A stretch of DNA of 14,469 bases from a virus (taxonomy: Duplodnaviria > Heunggongvirae > Uroviricota > Caudoviricetes). This document shows positions 4,622 through 13,245 of the stretch, in pieces. Numbering within the stretch: position 1 is the first letter of the stretch; every line of letters starts with the position of its first letter. The notes below the pieces were generated by a model that saw nothing but the letters and a program-made list of their open reading frames with translations, was not told the origin of the DNA and ran no database searches. The DNA is taken from IMG/VR virus record IMGVR_UViG_2563366931_000002. One strand, written 5' to 3'. The translations under genes and the position numbers were made by a program.

Positions 4622-7600
4622 ATGGGTAAAGGCAGCAGTAAGGGGCATACTCCGCGCGAAGCGAAGGACAACCTGAAGTCCACGCAGTTGCTGAGTGTGA
4701 TCGATGCCATCAGCGAAGGGCCGGTTGAAGGTCCGGTGGATGGATTAAAAAGCGTGCTGCTGAACAGTACGCCAGTGCTGGACAGTGAGGGGAATACCAA
4801 TATCTCCGGCGTCACGGTGGTGTTCCGGGCCGGTGAGCAGGAGCAGACACCGCCGGAGGGATTTGAATCCTCCGGCTCCGAGACGGTGCTGGGTACGGAA
4901 GTGAAATACGACACGCCGATCACCCGGACCATCACGTCGGCAAACATTGACCGACTGCGTTTTACCTTCGGCGTGCAGGCACTGGTGGAAACCACCTCAA
5001 AGGGGGACAGGAATCCGTCGGAAGTCCGCCTGCTGGTTCAGATCCAGCGTAATGGTGGCTGGGTGACGGAAAAAGACATCACCATTAAGGGCAAAACCAC
5101 CTCGCAGTATCTGGCCTCGGTGGTGGTGGGTAACCTGCCGCCGCGCCCGTTCAATATCCGGATGCGCAGGATGACGCCGGACAGCACCACAGACCAGCTG
5201 CAGAACAAAACGCTCTGGTCGTCATACACCGAAATCATCGATGTGAAACAGGGCTACCCGAACACGGCACTGGTCGGCGTGCAGGTGGATTCGGAGCAGT
5301 TCGGCAGCCAGCAGGTGAGCCGTAATTATCATCTGCGCGGGCGCATTCTGCAGGTGCCGTCGAACTATAACCCGCAGACGCGGCAATACAGCGGTATCTG
5401 GGACGGAACGTTTAAACCGGCATACAGCAACAACATGGCCTGGTGTCTGTGGGATATGCTGACCCATCCGCGCTACGGCATGGGGAAACGTCTTGGTGCG
5501 GCGGATGTGGATAAATGGGCGCTGTATGTCATCGGCCAGTACTGCGACCAGTCAGTGCCGGACGGCTTTGGCGGCACGGAGCCGCGCATCACCTGTAATG
5601 CGTACCTGACCACACAGCGCAAGGCGTGGGATGTGCTCAGTGATTTCTGCTCGGCGATGCGCTGTATGCCGGTATGGAACGGGCAGACGCTGACGTTCGT
5701 GCAGGACCGACCATCAGATAAGGTGTGGACCTATAACCGCAGTAATGTGGTGATGCCGGATGATGGCGCGCCGTTCCGCTACAGCTTCAGCGCCCTGAAG
5801 GACCGCCATAATGCCGTTGAGGTGAACTGGATTGACCCGAATAACGGCTGGGAGACGGCGACAGAGCTTGTGGAGGACACGCAGGCCATTGCCCGTTACG
5901 GTCGTAACGTCACGAAGATGGATGCCTTTGGCTGTACCAGCCGGGGGCAGGCACATCGCGCCGGGCTGTGGCTGATTAAAACAGAACTGCTGGAAACGCA
6001 GACCGTGGACTTCAGCGTGGGCGCAGAAGGGCTTCGCCATGTGCCGGGCGATGTCATTGAAATCTGTGATGATGACTATGCCGGTATCAGCATCGGCGGG
6101 CGCGTGCTGGCGGTAAACAGCCAGACCCGGACGCTGACGCTCGACCGTGAAATCACGCTGCCATCCTCCGGTACCACGCTGATAAGCCTGGTTGACGGAA
6201 GTGGCAATCCGGTCAGCGTGGAGGTTCAGTCCGTCACCGACGGCGTGAAGGTGAAAGTGAGCCGTGTTCCTGACGGCGTTGCTGAATACAGCGTGTGGGG
6301 GCTGAAGCTGCCGACGCTGCGCCAGCGCCTGTTCCGCTGCGTGAGTATCCGTGAGAACGACGACGGCACGTATGCCATCACCGCCGTGCAGCATGTACCG
6401 GAAAAAGAAGCCATCGTGGATAACGGGGCGCACTTTGACGGCGACCAGAGCGGCACGGTGAATGGTGTCACGCCGCCAGCGGTGCAGCACCTGACTGCCG
6501 AAGTCACCGCAGACAGCGGGGAATATCAGGTGCTGGCGCGCTGGGACACGCCGAAGGTGGTGAAGGGTGTGAGCTTTATGCTTCGCCTGACCGTAACAGC
6601 GGATGACGGCAGTGAGCGGCTGGTCAGCACGGCCCGGACGATGGAAACCACTTACCGCTTCACACAACTGGCGCTGGGGAACTACAGGCTGACAGTCCGG
6701 GCAGTAAATGCGTGGGGGCAGCAGGGCGATCCGGCGTCGGTATCGTTCCGGATTGCCGCACCGGCAGCGCCGTCGCGGATTGAGCTGACGCCGGGCTATT
6801 TTCAGATAACCGCCACGCCGCATCTTGCGGTTTATGATCCGACGGTACAGTTTGAGTTCTGGTTCTCGGAAAAGCGGATTGCGGATATCAGGCAGGTTGA
6901 AACCACAGCACGCTATCTTGGCACGGCGCTGTACTGGATAGCCGCCAGTATCAATATCAAACCGGGCCATGATTATTACTTTTATATCCGCAGTGTGAAC
7001 ACCGTTGGCAAATCGGCATTCGTGGAGGCTGTCGGTCAGCCGAGTGATGATGCATCAGGCTATCTGGATTTTTTCAAAGGAGAAATCGGGAAAACACATC
7101 TGGCCCAGGAGCTGTGGACGCAGATTGATAACGGTCAGCTTGCGCCTGACCTGGCTGAAATCAGGACGTCCATTACGGATGTCAGCAATGAAATCACACA
7201 GACCGTCAATAAGAAACTGGAAGACCAGAGTGCAGCGATCCAGCAGATACAGAAAGTTCAGGTTGATACAAATAATAACCTGAACAGCATGTGGGCTGTG
7301 AAGCTGCAGCAGATGCAGGACGGACGCCTTTATATTGCGGGTATCGGTGCCGGTATTGAGAACACCCCTGACGGCATGCAGAGTCAGGTGCTGCTGGCGG
7401 CAGACAGGATTGCGATGATTAATCCTGCGAATGGCAACACAAAACCGATGTTTGTTGGTCAGGGCGATCAGATATTCATGAACGACGTGTTCCTGAAACG
7501 CCTGACGGCCCCCACCATTACCAGCGGTGGAAATCCACCGGCATTTTCCCTGACACCGGACGGAAAGCTGACCGCTAAAAATGCGGATATCAGTGGCAGT

Positions 7601-8119
7601 GTGAATGCGAACGCCGGGACGCTCAACAATGTCACGGTAAATGAAAACTGTACGATTAAGGGCATGCTGGAGGCGACTCAGGTCAGAGGTGACTTCGTTA
7701 AAGCTGTATCCAAATCATTCCCGAAACAGGCTGGTACGTGGGGTAATACGGAAACACCAAACGGGACGGTTACAGTCACCATCAGCGATGATCATAACTT
7801 TGACCGTCAAATCATTATTCCGCCCATTATCTTTAACGGAATAGCGTATAGCGATCCGGGAAGTGGTAATAACCCGGGAGGTACAAGATACACGGGTTAT
7901 GGTTTTGAAGTTCGCAAAAACGGTGTATTAATCGCATCCAGAGAAACTAAAGGGGCCATTCCCGGTAGCTACAGTGCGGTTATTGATATGCCGAGTGGCA
8001 GGGGAAGCGTCACTCTGGAGTTTAAGATTTTCCAGAAAGGCAATCAGGGCGCAGGTAACATCACAGACTGTACGGTGATTGTGACCAAAAAAGCTGCTTC
8101 CGGTATCAGTATCCGTTGA
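4622..8119 (+). CDS. J: Host specificity protein J (central tail fibre / tail tip), lambda gpJ-like, 1165 aa
   Basis: Very long ORF downstream of I, with a GAGG Shine-Dalgarno 5 bp upstream. The N-terminus ([29 protein letters not shown]...) and most of the body match lambda gpJ as I recall it. It is about 30 codons longer than lambda J, and the 3' end drifts to lower GC. Confidence 0.92.
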
Positions 8120-8140
8120 AATATTTATAACCCCAATACG

Positions 8141-8164
8141 GGCGCCAGAAATGGCGCCTTTTTT
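8141..8164 (+). terminator. Rho-independent terminator downstream of J (GGCGCC-AGAAAT-GGCGCC stem-loop plus TTTTTT)
   Basis: Perfect 6-bp GC stem with a 6-nt loop at 8141..8158, immediately followed by a T6 run, 22 bp after the J stop and just before the fibre gene. Confidence 0.6.
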
Positions 8165-8179
8165 ATTTGTGGAGTGAGT

Positions 8180-10549
8180 ATGGCAGTACAGATTTCAGGT
8201 GTGCTGAAAGATGGTGCGGGAAAACCAATACAGAACTGCACTATTCAACTGAAGGCAAAGCGTAACAGCACCACGGTACTGGTGAACACGGTGGCCTCTG
8301 AAAATCCGGATGAAGCCGGGCGTTACAGCATGGATGTTGAGTATGGCCAGTACAGCGTTATCCTGCTTGTTGAAGGTTTTCCGCCTTCACATGCCGGAAC
8401 CATTACCGTCTATGAAGGTTCCAGACCAGGTACGCTGAATGATTTTCTCGGTGCCATGACGGAAGATGATGTCATGCCGGAAGCATTGCGTCGTTTTGAG
8501 GAAATGGTGGAAGAAGCGGCACGCAACGCCGAAGCCGCCTCTCAGAGCGCAGCGGCGGCAAAGAAATCCGAAACTGCAGCGGCATCATCGAAGAACGCGG
8601 CGAAAACCTCAGAAACGAATGCAGCTAATAGTGCACAGGCGGCAGCGACCTCAAAGACTGCATCGGCAAACTCCGCGACAGCAGCCAAAAAATCAGAAAC
8701 CAACGCGAAAAACAGCGAGACAGCCGCAAAGACGAGCGAAACCAACGCAAAGTCCAGCCAGACGGCAGCGAAAACCAGCGAAACGAATGCCAAAGCCAGT
8801 GAAACTGCGGCAAAAAACAGCCAGGTTGCAGCAGCCCAAAGCGAGAGCGCGGCAGCCGGTTCTGCGACTTCAGCAGCTGGATCAGCAACTGCTGCGGCTA
8901 ACAGCCAGAAAGCTGCGAAGACGAGTGAAACTAACGCAAAGTCCAGCCAGACGGCAGCGAAGACCAGCGAAACGAATGCCAAAGCCAGCGAAACTGCGGC
9001 GAAAAACAGCCAGGATGCAGCAGCCCAAAGCGAGAGTGCCGCAGCTGGTTCTGCAAGTGCGGCGGCTTCTTCTGCCACTGCATCAGCCAACAGTCAAAAA
9101 GCAGCAAAAACCAGTGAAACCAACACAAAGGCGAGCGAGACTGCGGCGACTAACTCGGCGAAAGCATCCGCTGCAAGCCAGATGGCTGCAAAAGCAAGTG
9201 AAGACGCAGCCAGGGAGTACGCAAGCCAGGCAGCTGAGCCGTATAAACAAGTTTTGCAGCCGTTGCCTGATGTGTGGATACCGTTTAATGACTCGATGGA
9301 TATGATTACAGGATTTGGCCCGGGATATAAAAAAATAACAGTGCGCGATGATGTGGTCACTATACCATCCGACAAAATTGTCCCGTTTTCCCGCGCGAGT
9401 TCCGCGACCTATATCAATAAGTCCGGCGCTCTTACCATTGCAGAAATTAATGAGCCACGTTTTGAAAAAGAAGGGCTGTTAATTGAAGGGCAGAGAACAA
9501 ATTACTTCACAAACTCAAACGCTCCGGAATTGTGGAATAAAAATCCAGGCCTGAAGATAAGCGAGACAAAAACCGATTCCAGGGGTTTTAAATATGCAAC
9601 GTTTACCCCAGAAAAATATTTAGATAGTTCTGGCTCATATGGAATTATATCAGGGGCAGCAGCAAATAAGATAGCGGTAGTCAAAAATGATGCAGTTACA
9701 ATATCCTTTAGAGCAAAAGGGGATAATGTAAGATTTGCGGCTAGATTTGATAAAGGGGATTCGCCAGTTGCTGTAGCTGCCATTTTTATTGATAGCGCCA
9801 CACTAGATACATTCACGTCTGGAGCAGATGCGTCTAATATTGCTGTGAAAAATGTTGTTCGTGACGGTGAGTGGGTTGCTGTAGAGGCTGTTTATAAAGT
9901 AACAGACGACTCTACATATATTAACGGCGCCATTCTGATGTCAAACAAACTGGGTGCTAATTTTGATAAGACTAGTTTTATGGATGTAACCACCCCTCAA
10001 ATAGAGCTAGGTTCTTGCTTATCATCATTTATTGTCACACCAGGTGTTCCTGCGACAAGGGCGAGTGATATGGTTATTTTTTCAACCAGAAATAACATAA
10101 GTTCTGTCCCTTTAAGCTGTCTTGTTGAAATACATAAAAATTGGGACTCTACGCCAAATCAGGCCCCACGAATTTTAACCACTATTGGCGTGGCGACTAA
10201 TGATGAACAACTGGTATTGGCTTTCAGGACGCCTACAAGTCCGGATGTAGAACCTTTACCTTATGTTCAGTTTGGAGTGAGATCTGCATATCTTAGTCCA
10301 TCTGTGAAGGCCGGGCGCAAAATGATTGCTGGTTTTGTCTGTAATAGCTCGACTGAATTTCGTTGCTGTTGTAATGGTTACCTGTCACCTGTTCAGACTT
10401 CGTCATGGAAGAATACCGGAGCTGCACATGAAATACGTATTGGGGGAACTTCTGCTGGAGGAGAACGTCACTTGTTTGGTCACGTTCGTAACCTGAGAAT
10501 ATGGCATAAAGAATTAACTGATGCGCAAATGGGGGAGAGTATTAAATGA
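8180..10549 (+). CDS. stf: Side tail fibre protein (Stf-like), mosaic: conserved lambda-Stf-like N-terminal domain, Ala/Ser/Thr-rich repeat shaft, low-GC C-terminal domain (possibly ConA/LamG-like lectin fold). The ORF track starts at GTG 8174; the ATG at 8180 with GGAG 5 bp upstream is the more likely start.
   Basis: The N-terminus from the ATG (MAVQISGVLKDGAGKPIQNCTIQLKAKRNSTTV...GRYSMDVEYGQYSVIL) closely resembles the lambda Stf N-terminus as I recall it. The central region has KTSETNAK / AAKNSQ repeats. The 3' half falls to roughly 40% GC. The C-terminal motif (HLFGHVRNLRIWHKELTDAQM) resembles the end of LamG-like jellyroll domains; this is inference. Confidence 0.8.
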   Translation: MAVQISGVLKDGAGKPIQNCTIQLKAKRNSTTVLVNTVASENPDEAGRYSMDVEYGQYSVILLVEGFPPSHAGTITVYEGSRPGTLNDFLGAMTEDDVMPEALRRFEEMVEEAARNAEAASQSAAAAKKSETAAASSKNAAKTSETNAANSAQAAATSKTASANSATAAKKSETNAKNSETAAKTSETNAKSSQTAAKTSETNAKASETAAKNSQVAAAQSESAAAGSATSAAGSATAAANSQKAAKTSETNAKSSQTAAKTSETNAKASETAAKNSQDAAAQSESAAAGSASAAASSATASANSQKAAKTSETNTKASETAATNSAKASAASQMAAKASEDAAREYASQAAEPYKQVLQPLPDVWIPFNDSMDMITGFGPGYKKITVRDDVVTIPSDKIVPFSRASSATYINKSGALTIAEINEPRFEKEGLLIEGQRTNYFTNSNAPELWNKNPGLKISETKTDSRGFKYATFTPEKYLDSSGSYGIISGAAANKIAVVKNDAVTISFRAKGDNVRFAARFDKGDSPVAVAAIFIDSATLDTFTSGADASNIAVKNVVRDGEWVAVEAVYKVTDDSTYINGAILMSNKLGANFDKTSFMDVTTPQIELGSCLSSFIVTPGVPATRASDMVIFSTRNNISSVPLSCLVEIHKNWDSTPNQAPRILTTIGVATNDEQLVLAFRTPTSPDVEPLPYVQFGVRSAYLSPSVKAGRKMIAGFVCNSSTEFRCCCNGYLSPVQTSSWKNTGAAHEIRIGGTSAGGERHLFGHVRNLRIWHKELTDAQMGESIK
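8727..8865 (+). repeat. Intragenic direct repeat copy A (139 bp) within the fibre shaft; repeat period 189 bp (63 codons)
   Basis: Aligned by eye to 8916..9054 with about 10 mismatches in 139 bp. It encodes AKTSETNAKSSQTAAKTSETNAKASETAAKNSQ.AAAQSESAAAGSA. Confidence 0.85.
8916..9054 (+). repeat. Intragenic direct repeat copy B (139 bp) within the fibre shaft; more diverged partial copies flank it
   Basis: Near-identical to 8727..8865 at nucleotide level. Flanking sequence (about 8560..8726 and 9055..9180) contains degenerate versions of the same unit. Confidence 0.85.
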
Positions 10550-10827
10550 AAGATTTAACACTCAAATTTGCAGACAGGGCCGACTTTTCGGCCTTTATGG
10601 AGAGCATTGGCTATTATGATGACGAGTTGATGCAGGATGATATTCTTATTGACGTGATAGGTAACGTGTACAAAGAAACCGGAGAACTGACTGAAGATGG
10701 CGAACCGGTATGTGTTAAGGAAGACGGATATTTTGTAAACGTGCGCATCATTAATGATGCAAAAAAATCGTCAATATTCGATGAATACGCGGTTGTTGTT
10801 GAACATCAACTTCGTGGCTGGATGTGA
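10546..10827 (+). CDS. Hypothetical small acidic protein (93 aa), translationally coupled to the fibre gene; function unknown
   Basis: The ATG overlaps the fibre stop (ATGA) and has a GGGGGAG Shine-Dalgarno-like sequence about 8 bp upstream. Low GC like the fibre 3' half. No motif I recognise. Confidence 0.5.
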   Translation: MKDLTLKFADRADFSAFMESIGYYDDELMQDDILIDVIGNVYKETGELTEDGEPVCVKEDGYFVNVRIINDAKKSSIFDEYAVVVEHQLRGWM

Positions 10828-10836
10828 GGGAGACAA

Positions 10837-11541
10837 ATGGCTACATCGACAGTAATTCCGGGAGACATCACCACGCTGAAGGGAGATGTCAGTAAAGCGA
10901 AGGAAGATATTTCCTCAATTAACAGTAAAGTATCAACGCTTCAGACTGATATGACCAGTGCAAAGCAGGATATCAGCTCCAGATACACAAAAACTGAAGT
11001 TGATAATAAGCTGAAAAACAAAGTGGAAGTGAACGATCTGGAAAGTGGTCGTTATGGCGGAGATTTTTATCCACTGACAGGTCGTGAAGCGTTTTATTTA
11101 TGGAATTTGGCCACGACTACAGCGGCGGCAAACCTTTATCTTAATCCTGACCCTGCAATTTCGTCTGTACTGCGGTCAACATCGTCTATCCGCTATAAGC
11201 ATTCAGTAGAGACGATAGATTCAGAGCACGCCGATCTCATTTTCAGGATGCGCCCTGTATGGTACAGGTCACAATGCGAAAATGACAGGCGTGACTGGGG
11301 ATTCTACGGATTGATTGCCGAGGAAGTAGGAGAAATTGCCCCTCAGTTTGTACACTGGCGATCAGCTAACGAAGATGATGCACGGGAAGCTATTTCCAGC
11401 AATGGCCTTGTTGCCGAAGGTGTAATGTACGAACGTCTGGTTGTTCCACTGATTCACCATATCCAGAAACTGACCGAAAGAGTTGATGAACTTGAGTCAG
11501 AATTGAAGTTGTTATCAACTTCCCGAAGCGATATCGGATAA
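10837..11541 (+). CDS. Short tail-fibre-like protein: N-terminal coiled coil plus C-terminal intramolecular-chaperone (peptidase S74-like) domain, 234 aa
   Basis: GAGGGAG Shine-Dalgarno upstream of the ATG. The N-terminal roughly 70 aa have heptad-like Ser/Thr/Lys/Asp periodicity. The C-terminus carries motifs typical of fibre/endosialidase C-terminal chaperone domains: SSIRYKHSVETID (Ser-x4-Lys), MRPVWYR, GLIAEEVGEIAPQFV, GVMYERLVVPLIHHIQKLTERVDELE. Confidence 0.7.
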   Translation: MATSTVIPGDITTLKGDVSKAKEDISSINSKVSTLQTDMTSAKQDISSRYTKTEVDNKLKNKVEVNDLESGRYGGDFYPLTGREAFYLWNLATTTAAANLYLNPDPAISSVLRSTSSIRYKHSVETIDSEHADLIFRMRPVWYRSQCENDRRDWGFYGLIAEEVGEIAPQFVHWRSANEDDAREAISSNGLVAEGVMYERLVVPLIHHIQKLTERVDELESELKLLSTSRSDIG

Positions 11542-11551
11542 AGGAGGAGTA

Positions 11552-11845
11552 ATGGATATAACACCTTTTCTTCATGCGCTTTGTGCTGTGGCTGCGCAGG
11601 TACTGATTGGTCTTTTTACCGGAAACTGGGTTTACGGGGCGATAGCCGGTTGTACGTTCTTCATTGCGCGTGAACACACCCAGGCAGAATATCGCTGGAT
11701 TGAAATGTTCGGGCATGGCAAGCGAATGAATATGCCGTGGTGGGGCGGTTTTGATTCGCGCGCATGGGATGTGGCAAGCCTGATGGATTTTGCTGTGCCG
11801 GTGGTGGCGTGTCTGCTGGTCTGGCTGTTGGTTAATCGTGGGTGA
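11552..11845 (+). CDS. Hypothetical small membrane protein (97 aa, 2-3 predicted transmembrane helices), last gene of the co-directional tail-region cluster
   Basis: Strong AGGAGG Shine-Dalgarno 6 bp upstream of the ATG. Hydrophobic stretches FLHALCAVAAQVLIGLF, VYGAIAGCTFFIA and LMDFAVPVVACLLVWLLV. No family recognised. Confidence 0.55.
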   Translation: MDITPFLHALCAVAAQVLIGLFTGNWVYGAIAGCTFFIAREHTQAEYRWIEMFGHGKRMNMPWWGGFDSRAWDVASLMDFAVPVVACLLVWLLVNRG

Positions 11846-12046
11846 AAAAAGGTGAGCTGTATATGCAACGGAGGAAGAAAGATCGTTGCTGGAAGCCTGA
11901 AAAAAGTATCGGGTGCTGCTAAACCGTGTGGACACTTCCGTAGCACCAGATATCGAGTGGCTTATTCAACCATAATAAACAGTATGTATATCATAGGTTA
12001 TTAATTGTGAGTTTTTTCGGTGTGTTATTTGTTTGTTTGATGTTAT

Positions 12047-12062
12047 GGAAGGTGCGAATAAG
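12047..12062. repeat. IS5 terminal inverted repeat (transposase-distal end)
   Basis: GGAAGGTGCGAATAAG read directly; matches the 13226..13241 reverse complement at 15 of 16 positions. Confidence 0.9.
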
Positions 12063-12192
12063 CGGGGAAATTCTTCTCGGCTGACTCAGTCATTTCATTT
12101 CTTCATGTTTGAGCCGATTTTTTCTCCCGTAAATGCCTTGAATCAGCCTATTTAGACCGTTTCTTCGCCATTTAAGGCGTTATCCCCAGTTT

Positions 12193-13218
<1,026 letters not shown>

Positions 13219-13225
13219 TCAGGGA

Positions 13226-13241
13226 CTTGTTCGCACCTTCC
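13226..13241. repeat. IS5 terminal inverted repeat (transposase-proximal end)
   Basis: CTTGTTCGCACCTTCC read directly; reverse complement GGAAGGTGCGAACAAG. Confidence 0.9.
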
Positions 13242-13245
13242 TTAT

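Follow-up and report, generated by a model that had tools for sequence, protein, structure and literature searches.

A small S74-domain protein encoded beside the side tail fibre of a lambda-like Escherichia coli prophage: a probable short subunit of a multi-protein fibre

INTRODUCTION

In proteins such as K1F endosialidase, GA-1 gp12 and T5 pb1, which end in an intramolecular chaperone (IMC) domain, hundreds of spike or fibre residues stand before the domain. The stretch of prophage DNA analysed here (the window, 14,469 nt) contains an open reading frame (ORF) of 234 codons, termed here the S74 gene, in which only 115 residues do so, and therefore the chaperone, with 119 aa, exceeds the mature product in size. 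This raises the question of whether such an ORF is a gene in its own right and, if it is, what its product contributes next to a complete side tail fibre. The original prediction had left three options side by side: a fibre-attachment adaptor in the form of a short stalk, a recombination remnant, or a trimeric decoy.

RESULTS

The C-terminal half is a Peptidase_S74 chaperone domain

The 234-aa protein was matched by the Pfam profile Peptidase_S74 (PF13884) with E=3.9e-6 and 27.5 bits, a significant match given the curated cut-off of 22 bits. The alignment covered aa 116-172 and profile positions 1-57 of 58, with position 1 falling on Ser116. Both Ser116 and Lys121, the dyad of the Ser-x4-Lys motif SSIRYK, were invariant in an alignment of 27 sequences with identities down to 28%, and the orthologues and the 346-aa allele described below likewise matched Peptidase_S74 in Pfam. 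The motif series read earlier from the sequence was found where it had been placed, i.e., SSIRYK is followed by MRPVWYR (aa 138-144), by GLIAEEVGEIAPQFV (aa 158-172) and by a C-terminal heptad helix (aa 198-232). In the AF2 model the pLDDT was ~90 across aa 120-234, and the best Foldseek match of this model was the MyRF ICA domain 7dc3 (E 1e-5, prob 1.0), with the endosialidase IMC 3gw6 and the GA-1 IMC 3gud among the other top matches. The best PDB match at the sequence level was the IMC of 8hqz_d (1076 aa, 'L-shaped tail fiber assembly'), a chain that we take to be DT57C LtfA; it was matched through its IMC and a TKTEVD repeat, and SSIRYK was aligned with its TSGIEYK. By profile, invariant residues and predicted fold, the C-terminal half is a genuine Peptidase_S74 IMC domain of the auto-cleaving type, as the original prediction had proposed.

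The C-terminal position of the domain and its Ser-x4-Lys dyad are as in K1F endosialidase (3gw6), GA-1 gp12 (3gud), T5 pb1 and MyRF ICA (7dc3), and so are the predicted fold and the long terminal heptad helix. Unlike in those proteins, cleavage is here predicted from sequence and fold. The IMC would be released by autoproteolysis after trimerization, and cleavage at Ser116 is expected to generate fragments of 12.5 kDa (115 aa) and 13.8 kDa (119 aa) from the 26.3-kDa full-length protein.

The S74 gene is intact and under purifying selection

The ORF begins with an ATG at 10837, and GAGGGAG is located just upstream (Table 1). All the related loci carry either GGAG-type sites or a 2-nt coupling spacer ahead of the S74 gene. 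The dN/dS ratio, calculated from 8 alleles, was ~0.2, which indicates purifying selection on the gene; by part of the protein it was 0.17 for the tip (aa 66-115) and 0.14 for the IMC. The gene was intact in 74 of the 76 IMG/VR loci that could be assessed, and of 5426 complete E. coli genomes, 723 carried it with at least 80% coverage, at several integration sites. The viable lambdoid phages IdasGreatGrand and PhiR49_1 carry it as well. The 234-aa ORF is thus a genuine gene, small and conserved, of a lambda-like prophage of E. coli.

Neither phage_tail_N nor any other N-terminal (tail-attachment) domain was detected in the protein with Pfam and NCBIfam, and Tfa-type profiles (Tfa, gp38, DUF4376) from Pfam, NCBIfam and PHROGs did not match it. 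No signal peptide or other secretion feature was found. In the literature searched, no function was assigned to this protein or to its Drexlerviridae orthologue, and the module that carries the gene is not covered in the Eligo preprint on lambda Stf engineering. The only virion proteome found for a carrier phage, that of swan01, lists five abundant proteins, neither fibre protein being among them; since it is limited to these five, it is uninformative either way.

The S74 gene is the third gene of a fibre cassette

The prophage that carries the cassette is a lambdoid E. coli prophage at the DLP12/appY site. The S74 gene adjoins the primary fibre gene and shares its transcription unit. The fibre and 93-aa genes overlap by ATGA, the following spacers of 9 nt and 10 nt hold Shine-Dalgarno sequences, and no promoter-like or terminator-like site was found among the cassette genes (Table 1). 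The 791-aa primary fibre was matched in Pfam by phage_tail_N (E=1.8e-67) and Laminin_G_3 (E=3.2e-7), in NCBIfam by GTA_spike_fiber (E=4.7e-15) and in the PDB by the RcGTA head spike fibre 6tb9 (E=5e-4). Its shaft region contains tandem repeats of 21, 42 and 189 nt, its C-terminal 420 aa are hypervariable among prophages, and no IMC was detected in it with Pfam. The 93-aa gene was found between the fibre gene and the S74 gene in all the lineages checked. Its product had no match in Pfam, NCBIfam or the PDB, apart from PDB sequence hits to GAPDH that were discarded as chance matches, and its AF2 model was unusable (pLDDT 43, from a shallow alignment).

Downstream, the 97-aa gene accompanies the cassette in lambdoid prophages, and the tfa remnant, which was also observed downstream of the cassette in other prophages, is a fossil of the stf-tfa module that has been replaced. 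The cassette itself consists of the side tail fibre, the 92-93-aa protein and, as its third gene, the S74 protein. Within it, two S74 alleles were paired freely with at least 10 divergent variants of the fibre C-terminus, and the 93-aa protein was at least 90% identical throughout.

Table 1. Features of the fibre cassette and of the S74 protein, in window coordinates
Feature	Position	Strand	Remarks
Primary side tail fibre, 791 aa	8174..10549	+	phage_tail_N, Ala/Ser-rich heptad-repeat shaft, C-terminal ~430-aa GTA-head-spike-fibre / ConA-like domain
93-aa protein, phrog_1361	10546..10827	+	start overlaps fibre stop (ATGA)
Spacer, 9 nt	10828..10836	+	holds end of Shine-Dalgarno sequence (tGAGGGAGacaaATG)
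S74 gene, 234 aa	10837..11541	+	short fibre protein with C-terminal S74 intramolecular chaperone
Conserved N-terminus, aa 1-20	10837..10896	+	MATSTVIPGDITTLKGDVSK; proposed docking segment
Heptad coiled-coil stalk, aa 8-49	10858..10983	+	predicted helix to ~aa 60
Non-helical tip segment, aa 66-115	11032..11181	+	distal end if cleaved
Peptidase_S74 IMC domain, aa 116-234	11182..11538	+	includes terminal heptad helix, aa 198-232
Ser-x4-Lys motif SSIRYK, aa 116-121	11182..11199	+	Ser116, Lys121; predicted autocleavage site
97-aa small hydrophobic protein, phrog_1443	11552..11845	+	strong Shine-Dalgarno sequence AGGAGG
tfa 3'-end remnant, ~110 nt	11865..11975	+	PGAP annotation of 100% identical region in strain 118UI, mapped onto window

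A short stalk and a non-helical tip precede the chaperone

The part that precedes the IMC had been described as about 110 residues of heptad-like coiled coil with no receptor-binding body. The length of the coiled coil did not hold, because a clean heptad register was found only in aa 8-49, about six heptads with ILVAIIVLMAIR at the a/d positions. In this region 92% of the a/d positions and 0% of the other positions are hydrophobic. AF2 placed helices at aa 9-47 and aa 52-60, and no heptad pattern was observed in aa 50-115. The stalks of different alleles vary in length by 7 or 14 residues, and weak matches of the stalk to the LPP zipper and to the P22 gp26 needle were obtained.

The N-terminus (aa 1-20) is common to the 346-aa allele and the Drexlerviridae orthologues, with 12-17 of the 20 residues identical (60-85%) in all the lineages, as compared with 57% for the whole protein against Drexlerviridae. 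Two families, phrog_4563 and phrog_19752, matched aa 1-33 alone, and when the N-terminal 45 residues were used as a query for alleles with other distal parts only fragments were retrieved. The motif IPxDITxLKxDVS of the N-terminus recurs inside the stalk of some alleles, so that the conservation of the N-terminus may reflect the coiled coil rather than a docking surface.

The tip (aa 66-115) has its homologue in long single-chain fibres, in the segment directly before the IMC, and its residues T94 and N99 were conserved or invariant in the 27-sequence alignment. In 3367 relatives the homology unit begins at ~aa 85-93. The AF2 monomer had no confident structure for aa 59-111, and the pLDDT of the tip was <50, which is uninformative for a fold that depends on the trimer. 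The claim that the protein lacks a receptor-binding body was therefore overstated, since this non-helical segment corresponds to a pre-IMC fibre segment, but what would remain after cleavage is indeed very small (115 aa, 12.5 kDa).

Alleles and orthologues link the protein to long fibres and to virulent phages

In other prophages a 346-aa allele, with the same neighbours, occupies the slot of the S74 gene. It resembles the 234-aa protein in the first ~20-30 residues (68% identity over aa 1-31) and in its canonical C-terminal S74 domain, but a ~195-aa beta-rich body replaces the heptad stalk and the 50-aa tip, and its IMC is only ~25% identical. The two alleles are common over aa 1-~20 and then diverge, and the ~195-aa body matches distal fibre ends. 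As for the 234-aa protein, its aa 38/49-234 share 50-59% identity with the C-termini of fibres that consist of one chain of 539-1243 aa and bear phage_tail_N, Phage_fiber_2 and Gp34_trimer domains.

The order fibre, 92-93-aa protein and ~231-aa S74 protein is kept in virulent T1-like Drexlerviridae, and four more divergent lineages have the same three-gene order. Between the lambdoid and the Drexlerviridae cassettes the identity is 43% for the fibre, 47% for the 92-93-aa protein and 57% for the S74 protein. The Warwickvirus orthologues, e.g., PeterMerian bas05_0029 and SECphi27 gp79 ('chaperone of endosialidase'), are full-length (55-59% identity over 91-93% of the S74 protein), and the authors of the BASEL collection labelled the former a 'putative lateral tail fiber chaperone'. 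These carriers differ from the lambdoid prophages in that they are virulent and have an unrelated fibre attachment domain, and neither the 97-aa gene nor a tfa remnant follows the cassette. Although the primary fibres of the two groups have unrelated N-termini for attachment to the tail, the N-terminus of the S74 protein is 75% conserved between them. In five Drexlerviridae isolates grown on K-12 the S74 gene was matched in two pieces, and in orkinos it is annotated as two overlapping ORFs; this suggests that the gene is dispensable there, unless sequencing errors account for the split. The copies in orkinos, AV105, JLBYU19, ityhuna and JLBYU10 appear to be frameshifted.

DISCUSSION

The S74 protein is probably a short piece of a side tail fibre built from several proteins, a distal or branch subunit that is trimerized by a cis-acting, self-cleaving IMC. 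Two observations argue that it is a structural part of the fibre and not a chaperone alone, namely the homology of aa 38/49-234 to the ends of long fibres, and the 346-aa allele that brings a beta-rich body to the same slot. The gene would be expressed within the late operon, its translation coupled to that of the 93-aa gene upstream, as the coupling signals suggest. Given the identity of the domain, aa 116-234 may then set three chains in register, and, from the way the family works, the chaperone would nucleate the folding of a short beta-structured tip (aa ~66-115) and of the stalk (aa ~8-60). The Ser116/Lys121 dyad would cleave the chain at Ser116, so that the 13.8-kDa chaperone departs and a trimeric stalk of ~12.5 kDa per chain is left as the mature product. 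We infer both this cleavage and the attachment that would follow it, in which the conserved N-terminus would dock on the C-terminal region of the primary fibre or on the 93-aa protein, and the docked stalk would become either the outermost tip of the fibre or a branch at its side. A docking site inside the module is indicated by the conservation of the S74 N-terminus in phages whose fibre attachment domains are unrelated, and also by the free combination of S74 alleles with fibre variants in the presence of a 93-aa protein that is nearly constant. The hypervariable lectin-like domain of the 791-aa fibre would provide strain-specific glycan binding, and the much more conserved short subunit, in its 234-aa and 346-aa alleles, would provide a second contact. 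Among the three original options, the adaptor or short stalk came closest, although the evidence favours something narrower, a distal or branch subunit from a three-gene cassette in which a 346-aa allele can take the same slot.

The nearest precedent is found in the T5-like phages DT57C and DT571/2, whose branched fibres consist of LtfA and LtfB, the second, S74-bearing protein being attached via a short conserved N-terminus (PMC4728585, PMC10713586). Like LtfB, the S74 protein is the product of a second fibre gene beside the primary one, lacks a tail-attachment domain, ends in an S74 domain and starts with a short conserved segment for which docking on the primary fibre is proposed. It differs in that its mature part is much shorter and in that a 93-aa gene lies between the two fibre genes; furthermore, LtfA has its own IMC and the 791-aa fibre does not. 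With lambda Stf/Tfa the cassette shares the place after J and the phage_tail_N domain of the primary fibre, but the distal part of stf and tfa have been replaced, with ~110 nt of tfa left, and help in folding, which in lambda comes from Tfa, is expected here from the IMC in cis.

Alternatively, the protein could be an assembly chaperone that acts in trans and stays out of the virion. With its S74 domain and coiled coil it would help the 791-aa fibre to trimerize or fold, in place of the lost Tfa, and would then be discarded. The BASEL label is in line with such a role, the primary fibre has no IMC of its own, and with tfa reduced to a remnant beside the cassette another assembly aid may be needed. 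We nevertheless consider this role unlikely, because to our knowledge every characterised S74 domain acts in cis on its own chain. Such action in cis has been described (PMC4728585; Schulz 2010, as cited). In addition, the part before the cleavage site is homologous to the mature distal ends of long fibres and under constraint as strong as that on the IMC, and a complete beta-rich fibre body is present in the 346-aa allele. Nor was co-variation observed between the S74 alleles and the hypervariable C-terminus of the fibre, which is what they would need to fold. A mixed role also seems improbable, in which a trans-acting or dual-use device would assemble together with the lectin-tipped fibre that lacks a chaperone, with the 93-aa protein as a potential bridge, and would serve as a trimerization seed or a capping stalk. 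Self-cleavage would then leave a minimal 12.5-kDa trimer as a conserved second receptor contact or as a regulator of the exposure of the hypervariable domain. It is doubtful, too, that the cleaved trimeric stalk sits elsewhere on the particle as an independent short fibre or whisker, or is a free decoy. The S74 gene moves together with the region encoding the fibre C-terminus and the 93-aa gene between families with unrelated tails and fibre attachment domains, it is translationally coupled to these genes, and its product lacks a signal peptide, a secretion feature and a known tail-attachment domain; the decoy of the original prediction found no support.

The proposal that the gene is a non-functional recombination remnant, i.e., the 3' end of an ancestral long stf left after a new distal module was inserted upstream, draws on the C-terminal end. 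Over their last 150-190 residues the S74 protein and long Stf proteins are homologous, a 958-aa Stf (P0066) has identical last ~20 residues and shows 80% DNA identity from window position 11251 through the 97-aa gene and the tfa remnant, and phrog_3299 matches the S74 protein at profile positions 1147-1384 of 1385. Against it, the ORF starts independently, behind a Shine-Dalgarno sequence, and its conserved N-terminus is absent from the long fibres. Purifying selection acts on the gene, almost every locus has an intact copy, and the three-gene order has been conserved in the compact genomes of virulent phages, where the gene keeps its position. For these reasons the ORF is not the 3' fragment of a disrupted gene. 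A remnant is therefore very improbable and this option of the original prediction was rejected. Even less likely is a fusion of the 93-aa and 234-aa ORFs into one protein by occasional read-through of the stop codon. In 10 of the 12 loci examined the two ORFs share a frame, with a single stop and 2-4 codons between them, and this stop is TGA in the lambdoid loci except L005. It is TAA, however, in Drexlerviridae, in L005 and in metagenomic loci, and one lineage has a 2-nt spacer that places the genes in different frames; on these two observations the fusion was rejected, and GGAG sites precede the ATG in nearly all loci.

If the dual-use or trans role were true, this would be the first demonstrated case of an IMC domain that serves a polypeptide other than its own, and no smaller IMC client would be known. 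With a client of 115 residues and a chaperone of 119, the S74 protein is a handy small natural substrate for the study of trimer nucleation by an IMC; in other respects it represents an expected variation on modular phage fibres. The cassette is common: 13% of complete E. coli genomes have it, as do many T1-like phages of phage collections. If the S74 protein is a conserved second tip on a fibre with a hypervariable main domain, it would be relevant to the prediction of host range, and it would also matter for the engineering of lambda- or T1-based delivery particles, since three genes, and not one, would have to be moved.

The chaperone domain and the stalk of the S74 protein

The original prediction assigned an auto-cleaving intramolecular chaperone (IMC) domain to the C-terminal half of the 234-aa product (here, the S74 protein). 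The ORF and the motif positions were as described (SSIRYK, aa 116-121; MRPVWYR, aa 138-144; GLIAEEVGEIAPQFV, aa 158-172), and the Pfam Peptidase_S74 profile matched above its curated cut-off (27.5 bits versus 22, E=3.9e-6), beginning exactly at Ser116. Across 27 aligned relatives, with identities as low as 28%, Ser116 and Lys121 were invariant, as were P140, V141, Y143, R144, G158, I160-E162 and P169. The AF2 model had a pLDDT of ~90 across aa 120-234, and its best structural matches were the MyRF ICA domain (7dc3, E 1e-5), the endosialidase IMC (3gw6) and the GA-1 chaperone (3gud); the sole solved relative found by sequence was the C-terminal end of the 1076-aa L-shaped tail fibre chain 8hqz_d. 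On the strength of the Pfam match, the invariant residues, the fold and the 8hqz_d match, it is near certain that this half is a bona fide IMC domain.

The coiled coil of ~110 residues that was thought to precede the domain was found only in part, with heptads at aa 8-49 (the stalk) and no heptad signal at aa 50-115. A clean register was limited to the stalk, where the a/d positions (ILVAIIVLMAIR) were 92% hydrophobic, versus 0% at the other positions, and the predicted helix stopped at ~aa 60. Alleles differed in stalk length by 7 or 14 residues. For eight lambdoid alleles, dN/dS was 0.36 for aa 1-65, 0.17 for aa 66-115 (the tip segment) and 0.14 for the IMC, so that the tip segment, which is homologous to the pre-IMC tips of fibres, is constrained.

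Gene order at the prophage tail end

The window comprises the tail end of an E. coli lambdoid prophage that is integrated beside appY-ompT-envY (the DLP12 position), and its segment 10546-11900 was 100% identical to many sequenced strains, e.g. 118UI.

Features of the tail-fibre region in the window
Feature	Coordinates	Strand	Remarks
Tape-measure-like gene, then M, L, K, I, J	J = 4622-8119	+	
Side tail fibre, 791 aa	8174-10549	+	
93-aa ORF	10546-10827	+	
S74 gene, 234 aa	10837-11541	+	
97-aa ORF	11552-11845	+	phrog_1443
tfa (tail-fibre-assembly) gene remnant	11865-11975	+	3′ end, ~110 nt
IS5-family element	12044-13244		between tfa remnant and appY; imperfect terminal inverted repeats 12044-12062, 13226-13244
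IS5-family DDE transposase, 338 aa	12193-13209	-	

The IS5-family element is absent from the otherwise identical 118UI locus. Directly 3′ of J there is a terminator-like hairpin with a T-run (8140-8159), and lom, present between J and the fibre gene in most related prophages, is absent here (8120-8173). A tfa 3′ remnant lay downstream of the cassette (fibre, 93-aa and S74 genes) in the window and in every lambdoid locus inspected, which suggests that the cassette displaced a distal stf-tfa module via recombination within tfa.

The 97-aa protein, a candidate membrane moron or exclusion protein, has hydrophobic stretches at ~aa 5-25 and ~75-95; its gene has a strong Shine-Dalgarno sequence and a dN/dS of ~0.26. 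The query 10546-11900, which also takes in this gene and the tfa remnant, matched 2453 genomes, versus 999 for 10700-11541, and hence the 97-aa gene may be commoner than the S74 gene. The Drexlerviridae cassette lacks it, and a 57-aa truncated ORF occupies its position after a 958-aa single-chain Stf.

The S74 ORF is an independent, maintained gene

As judged from sequence, the evolutionary link between the S74 protein and long fibres is real. The protein matched PHROG 3299 at profile positions 1147-1384 of 1385, and an exhaustive HMMER search gave 3367 relatives, in which a shared unit (~aa 85-227) forms the C-terminus of proteins of 140-1284 aa. The closest long relatives (539-1243 aa, 50-59% identity beginning at aa 38/49) were side tail fibres with phage_tail_N, Phage_fiber_2 or Gp34_trimer domains. 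The last ~20 residues of the 958-aa Stf were identical to those of the S74 protein, and its locus had 80% DNA identity from window position 11251 through the 97-aa gene.

This kinship raises the possibility that the ORF is a recombination remnant, one of the options in the original prediction, and thus the 3′ fragment of a disrupted long fibre gene, which that prediction had named as a refuting outcome. We consider this highly improbable, as it is contradicted by the evidence for maintenance. The gene has its own ATG after GAGGGAG, 9 nt past the stop of the 93-aa gene, whose start overlaps the fibre stop (ATGA). These are signals of translational coupling, and a search for promoter-like or terminator-like sites between the cassette genes found none. 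Overall dN/dS was ~0.2 (eight lambdoid alleles), and among 80 IMG/VR contigs with the 93-aa gene the gene that follows it was intact in 74 of the 76 assessable cases. Of 5426 complete E. coli genomes, 723 carried the S74 segment at a coverage of at least 80%, and it occupied several prophage sites. In BL21(DE3), where the adjoining fibre gene lies beside an IS3 element and is labelled a partial pseudogene, the ORF is intact. The gene is also kept in virulent phages, and viable phage isolates (IdasGreatGrand, PhiR49_1 and PhiR55_1) carry it too.

The cassette in virulent phages and the exchange of its parts

The decisive context was provided by virulent T1-like phages (Drexlerviridae, genus Warwickvirus), which carry the same three genes in identical order, with the primase and SSB genes on either side. 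The three encode a lateral tail fibre of ~655 aa (43% identity to the window, over the shaft end and the C-terminal domain), a 92-aa protein (47%) and a 231-aa S74 protein (57%). The N-terminal attachment part of their fibre is unrelated to the lambdoid phage_tail_N domain. The order was kept in four additional divergent lineages from metagenomes. The S74 gene, the 93-aa gene and the fibre C-terminal region are inherited together. Four extra small same-strand genes (235, 107-123, 163-176 and 85-94 aa), which neither the window nor Warwickvirus genomes contain, follow the cassette in two phage contigs from metagenomes (L097, 2713-4680; L099, 2142-3972).

Between prophages, the C-terminal ~420 residues of the fibre (aa 369-791, window 9278-10546) formed at least 10 clusters with only ~40% mutual identity, in a sample in which the 93-aa protein was at least 90% identical. 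The fibre C-terminal ~430 residues matched NCBIfam 'GTA_spike_fiber' and Laminin_G_3, and weakly the RcGTA head spike fibre (6tb9). Given this hypervariability and the resemblance to 6tb9 and ConA-like lectins, the region is probably a strain-specific glycan-binding domain. The fibre shaft (8677-9149) consists of nested tandem repeats of 21, 42 and 189 nt (7, 14 and 63 aa; SETNAKxSETAAK-like), and is heptad-based, probably a coiled coil, and prone to length variation.

Elsewhere among lambdoid prophages, the 93-aa gene is followed by one for a 346-aa protein, which shares its first ~20-30 residues with the 234-aa type (68% identity, aa 1-31) and continues with a ~195-aa beta-rich body matching distal ends of long fibres and a canonical S74 domain (E=6e-14). 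The ~234-aa type was counted 51 times and the 346-aa type 23 times in the 80 IMG/VR loci, and every major fibre C-terminal cluster occurred with both.

A proposed short subunit of the side-fibre module

Taken as a whole, the reading that we consider moderately probable is that the S74 protein is a self-cleaving, trimeric short subunit docked within the side-fibre module. By analogy with the S74 family, the IMC would align three chains in register and nucleate the tip and stalk, and Ser116/Lys121 would then cleave at Ser116, giving a trimer of 12.5 kDa per chain and a released 13.8-kDa chaperone. The genomic context suggests that the mature stalk would dock by its conserved N-terminus onto a component of the co-transferred module. 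This partner should lie inside the module, because the two phage groups have unrelated tails and unrelated fibre attachment domains, and should be conserved, because S74 alleles occur in free combination with divergent fibre C-termini. Candidates are hence the 93-aa protein and a conserved stretch where the fibre C-terminal region starts (aa ~360-445, ~75% identity between phage families). For the attachment itself the odds are about even. Although 12-17 of the first 20 residues are identical in every lineage, the N-terminal motif recurs inside the stalk of some alleles, so that its conservation may be structural, and not that of a docking surface.

The S74 protein could instead act in trans as a chaperone for the fibre, as the BASEL annotation of the Drexlerviridae orthologue has it and as would fit the loss of tfa. 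This would leave unexplained the homology to fibre tips, the constraint on aa 66-115 and the 346-aa allele with its full body, and S74 alleles do not co-vary with the fibre domain to be folded; we regard it as unlikely. A free-standing whisker or decoy is unsupported, and about as unlikely. The 93-aa and S74 ORFs are in frame in 10 of 12 loci (window 10825-10839; L002-L006, L093-L100 of the compared set), split by one stop and 2-4 codons (spacers of 6, 9 or 12 nt), which would be compatible with a fusion produced by read-through. However, read-through is unlikely, because most non-lambdoid loci have TAA stops and the spacer is 2 nt in one lineage, and such a fusion is the remotest of the explanations weighed here.

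In phage orkinos (L093, 3001-3739) the annotation splits the S74 gene into two overlapping ORFs, and in AV105, JLBYU19, ityhuna and JLBYU10 it matches in two pieces; all five are K-12-grown Drexlerviridae. The gene may have been lost or be dispensable on rough laboratory hosts, or the split may be a sequencing error. The former would agree with an accessory role in the fibre, as phages can do without lateral fibres on rough strains (PMC10713586).

The S74 domain family, multi-protein or branched lateral fibres and the coiled coil plus S74 architecture (class TC7 in a coliphage fibre atlas) are already described, and databases label the protein 'tail fiber domain-containing protein' or 'chaperone of endosialidase'. 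In the literature we found no description of a cassette common to lambdoid prophages and Drexlerviridae or of two S74 alleles with a common N-terminus, and no functional test of the S74 protein. The proposed subunit resembles the branched fibres of T5-like phages, in which the primary fibre carries a second S74-bearing protein whose N-terminus is likewise short and conserved (LtfA/LtfB; PMC4728585, PMC10713586). The single unusual trait of the S74 protein is its size, in that the chaperone exceeds its client.
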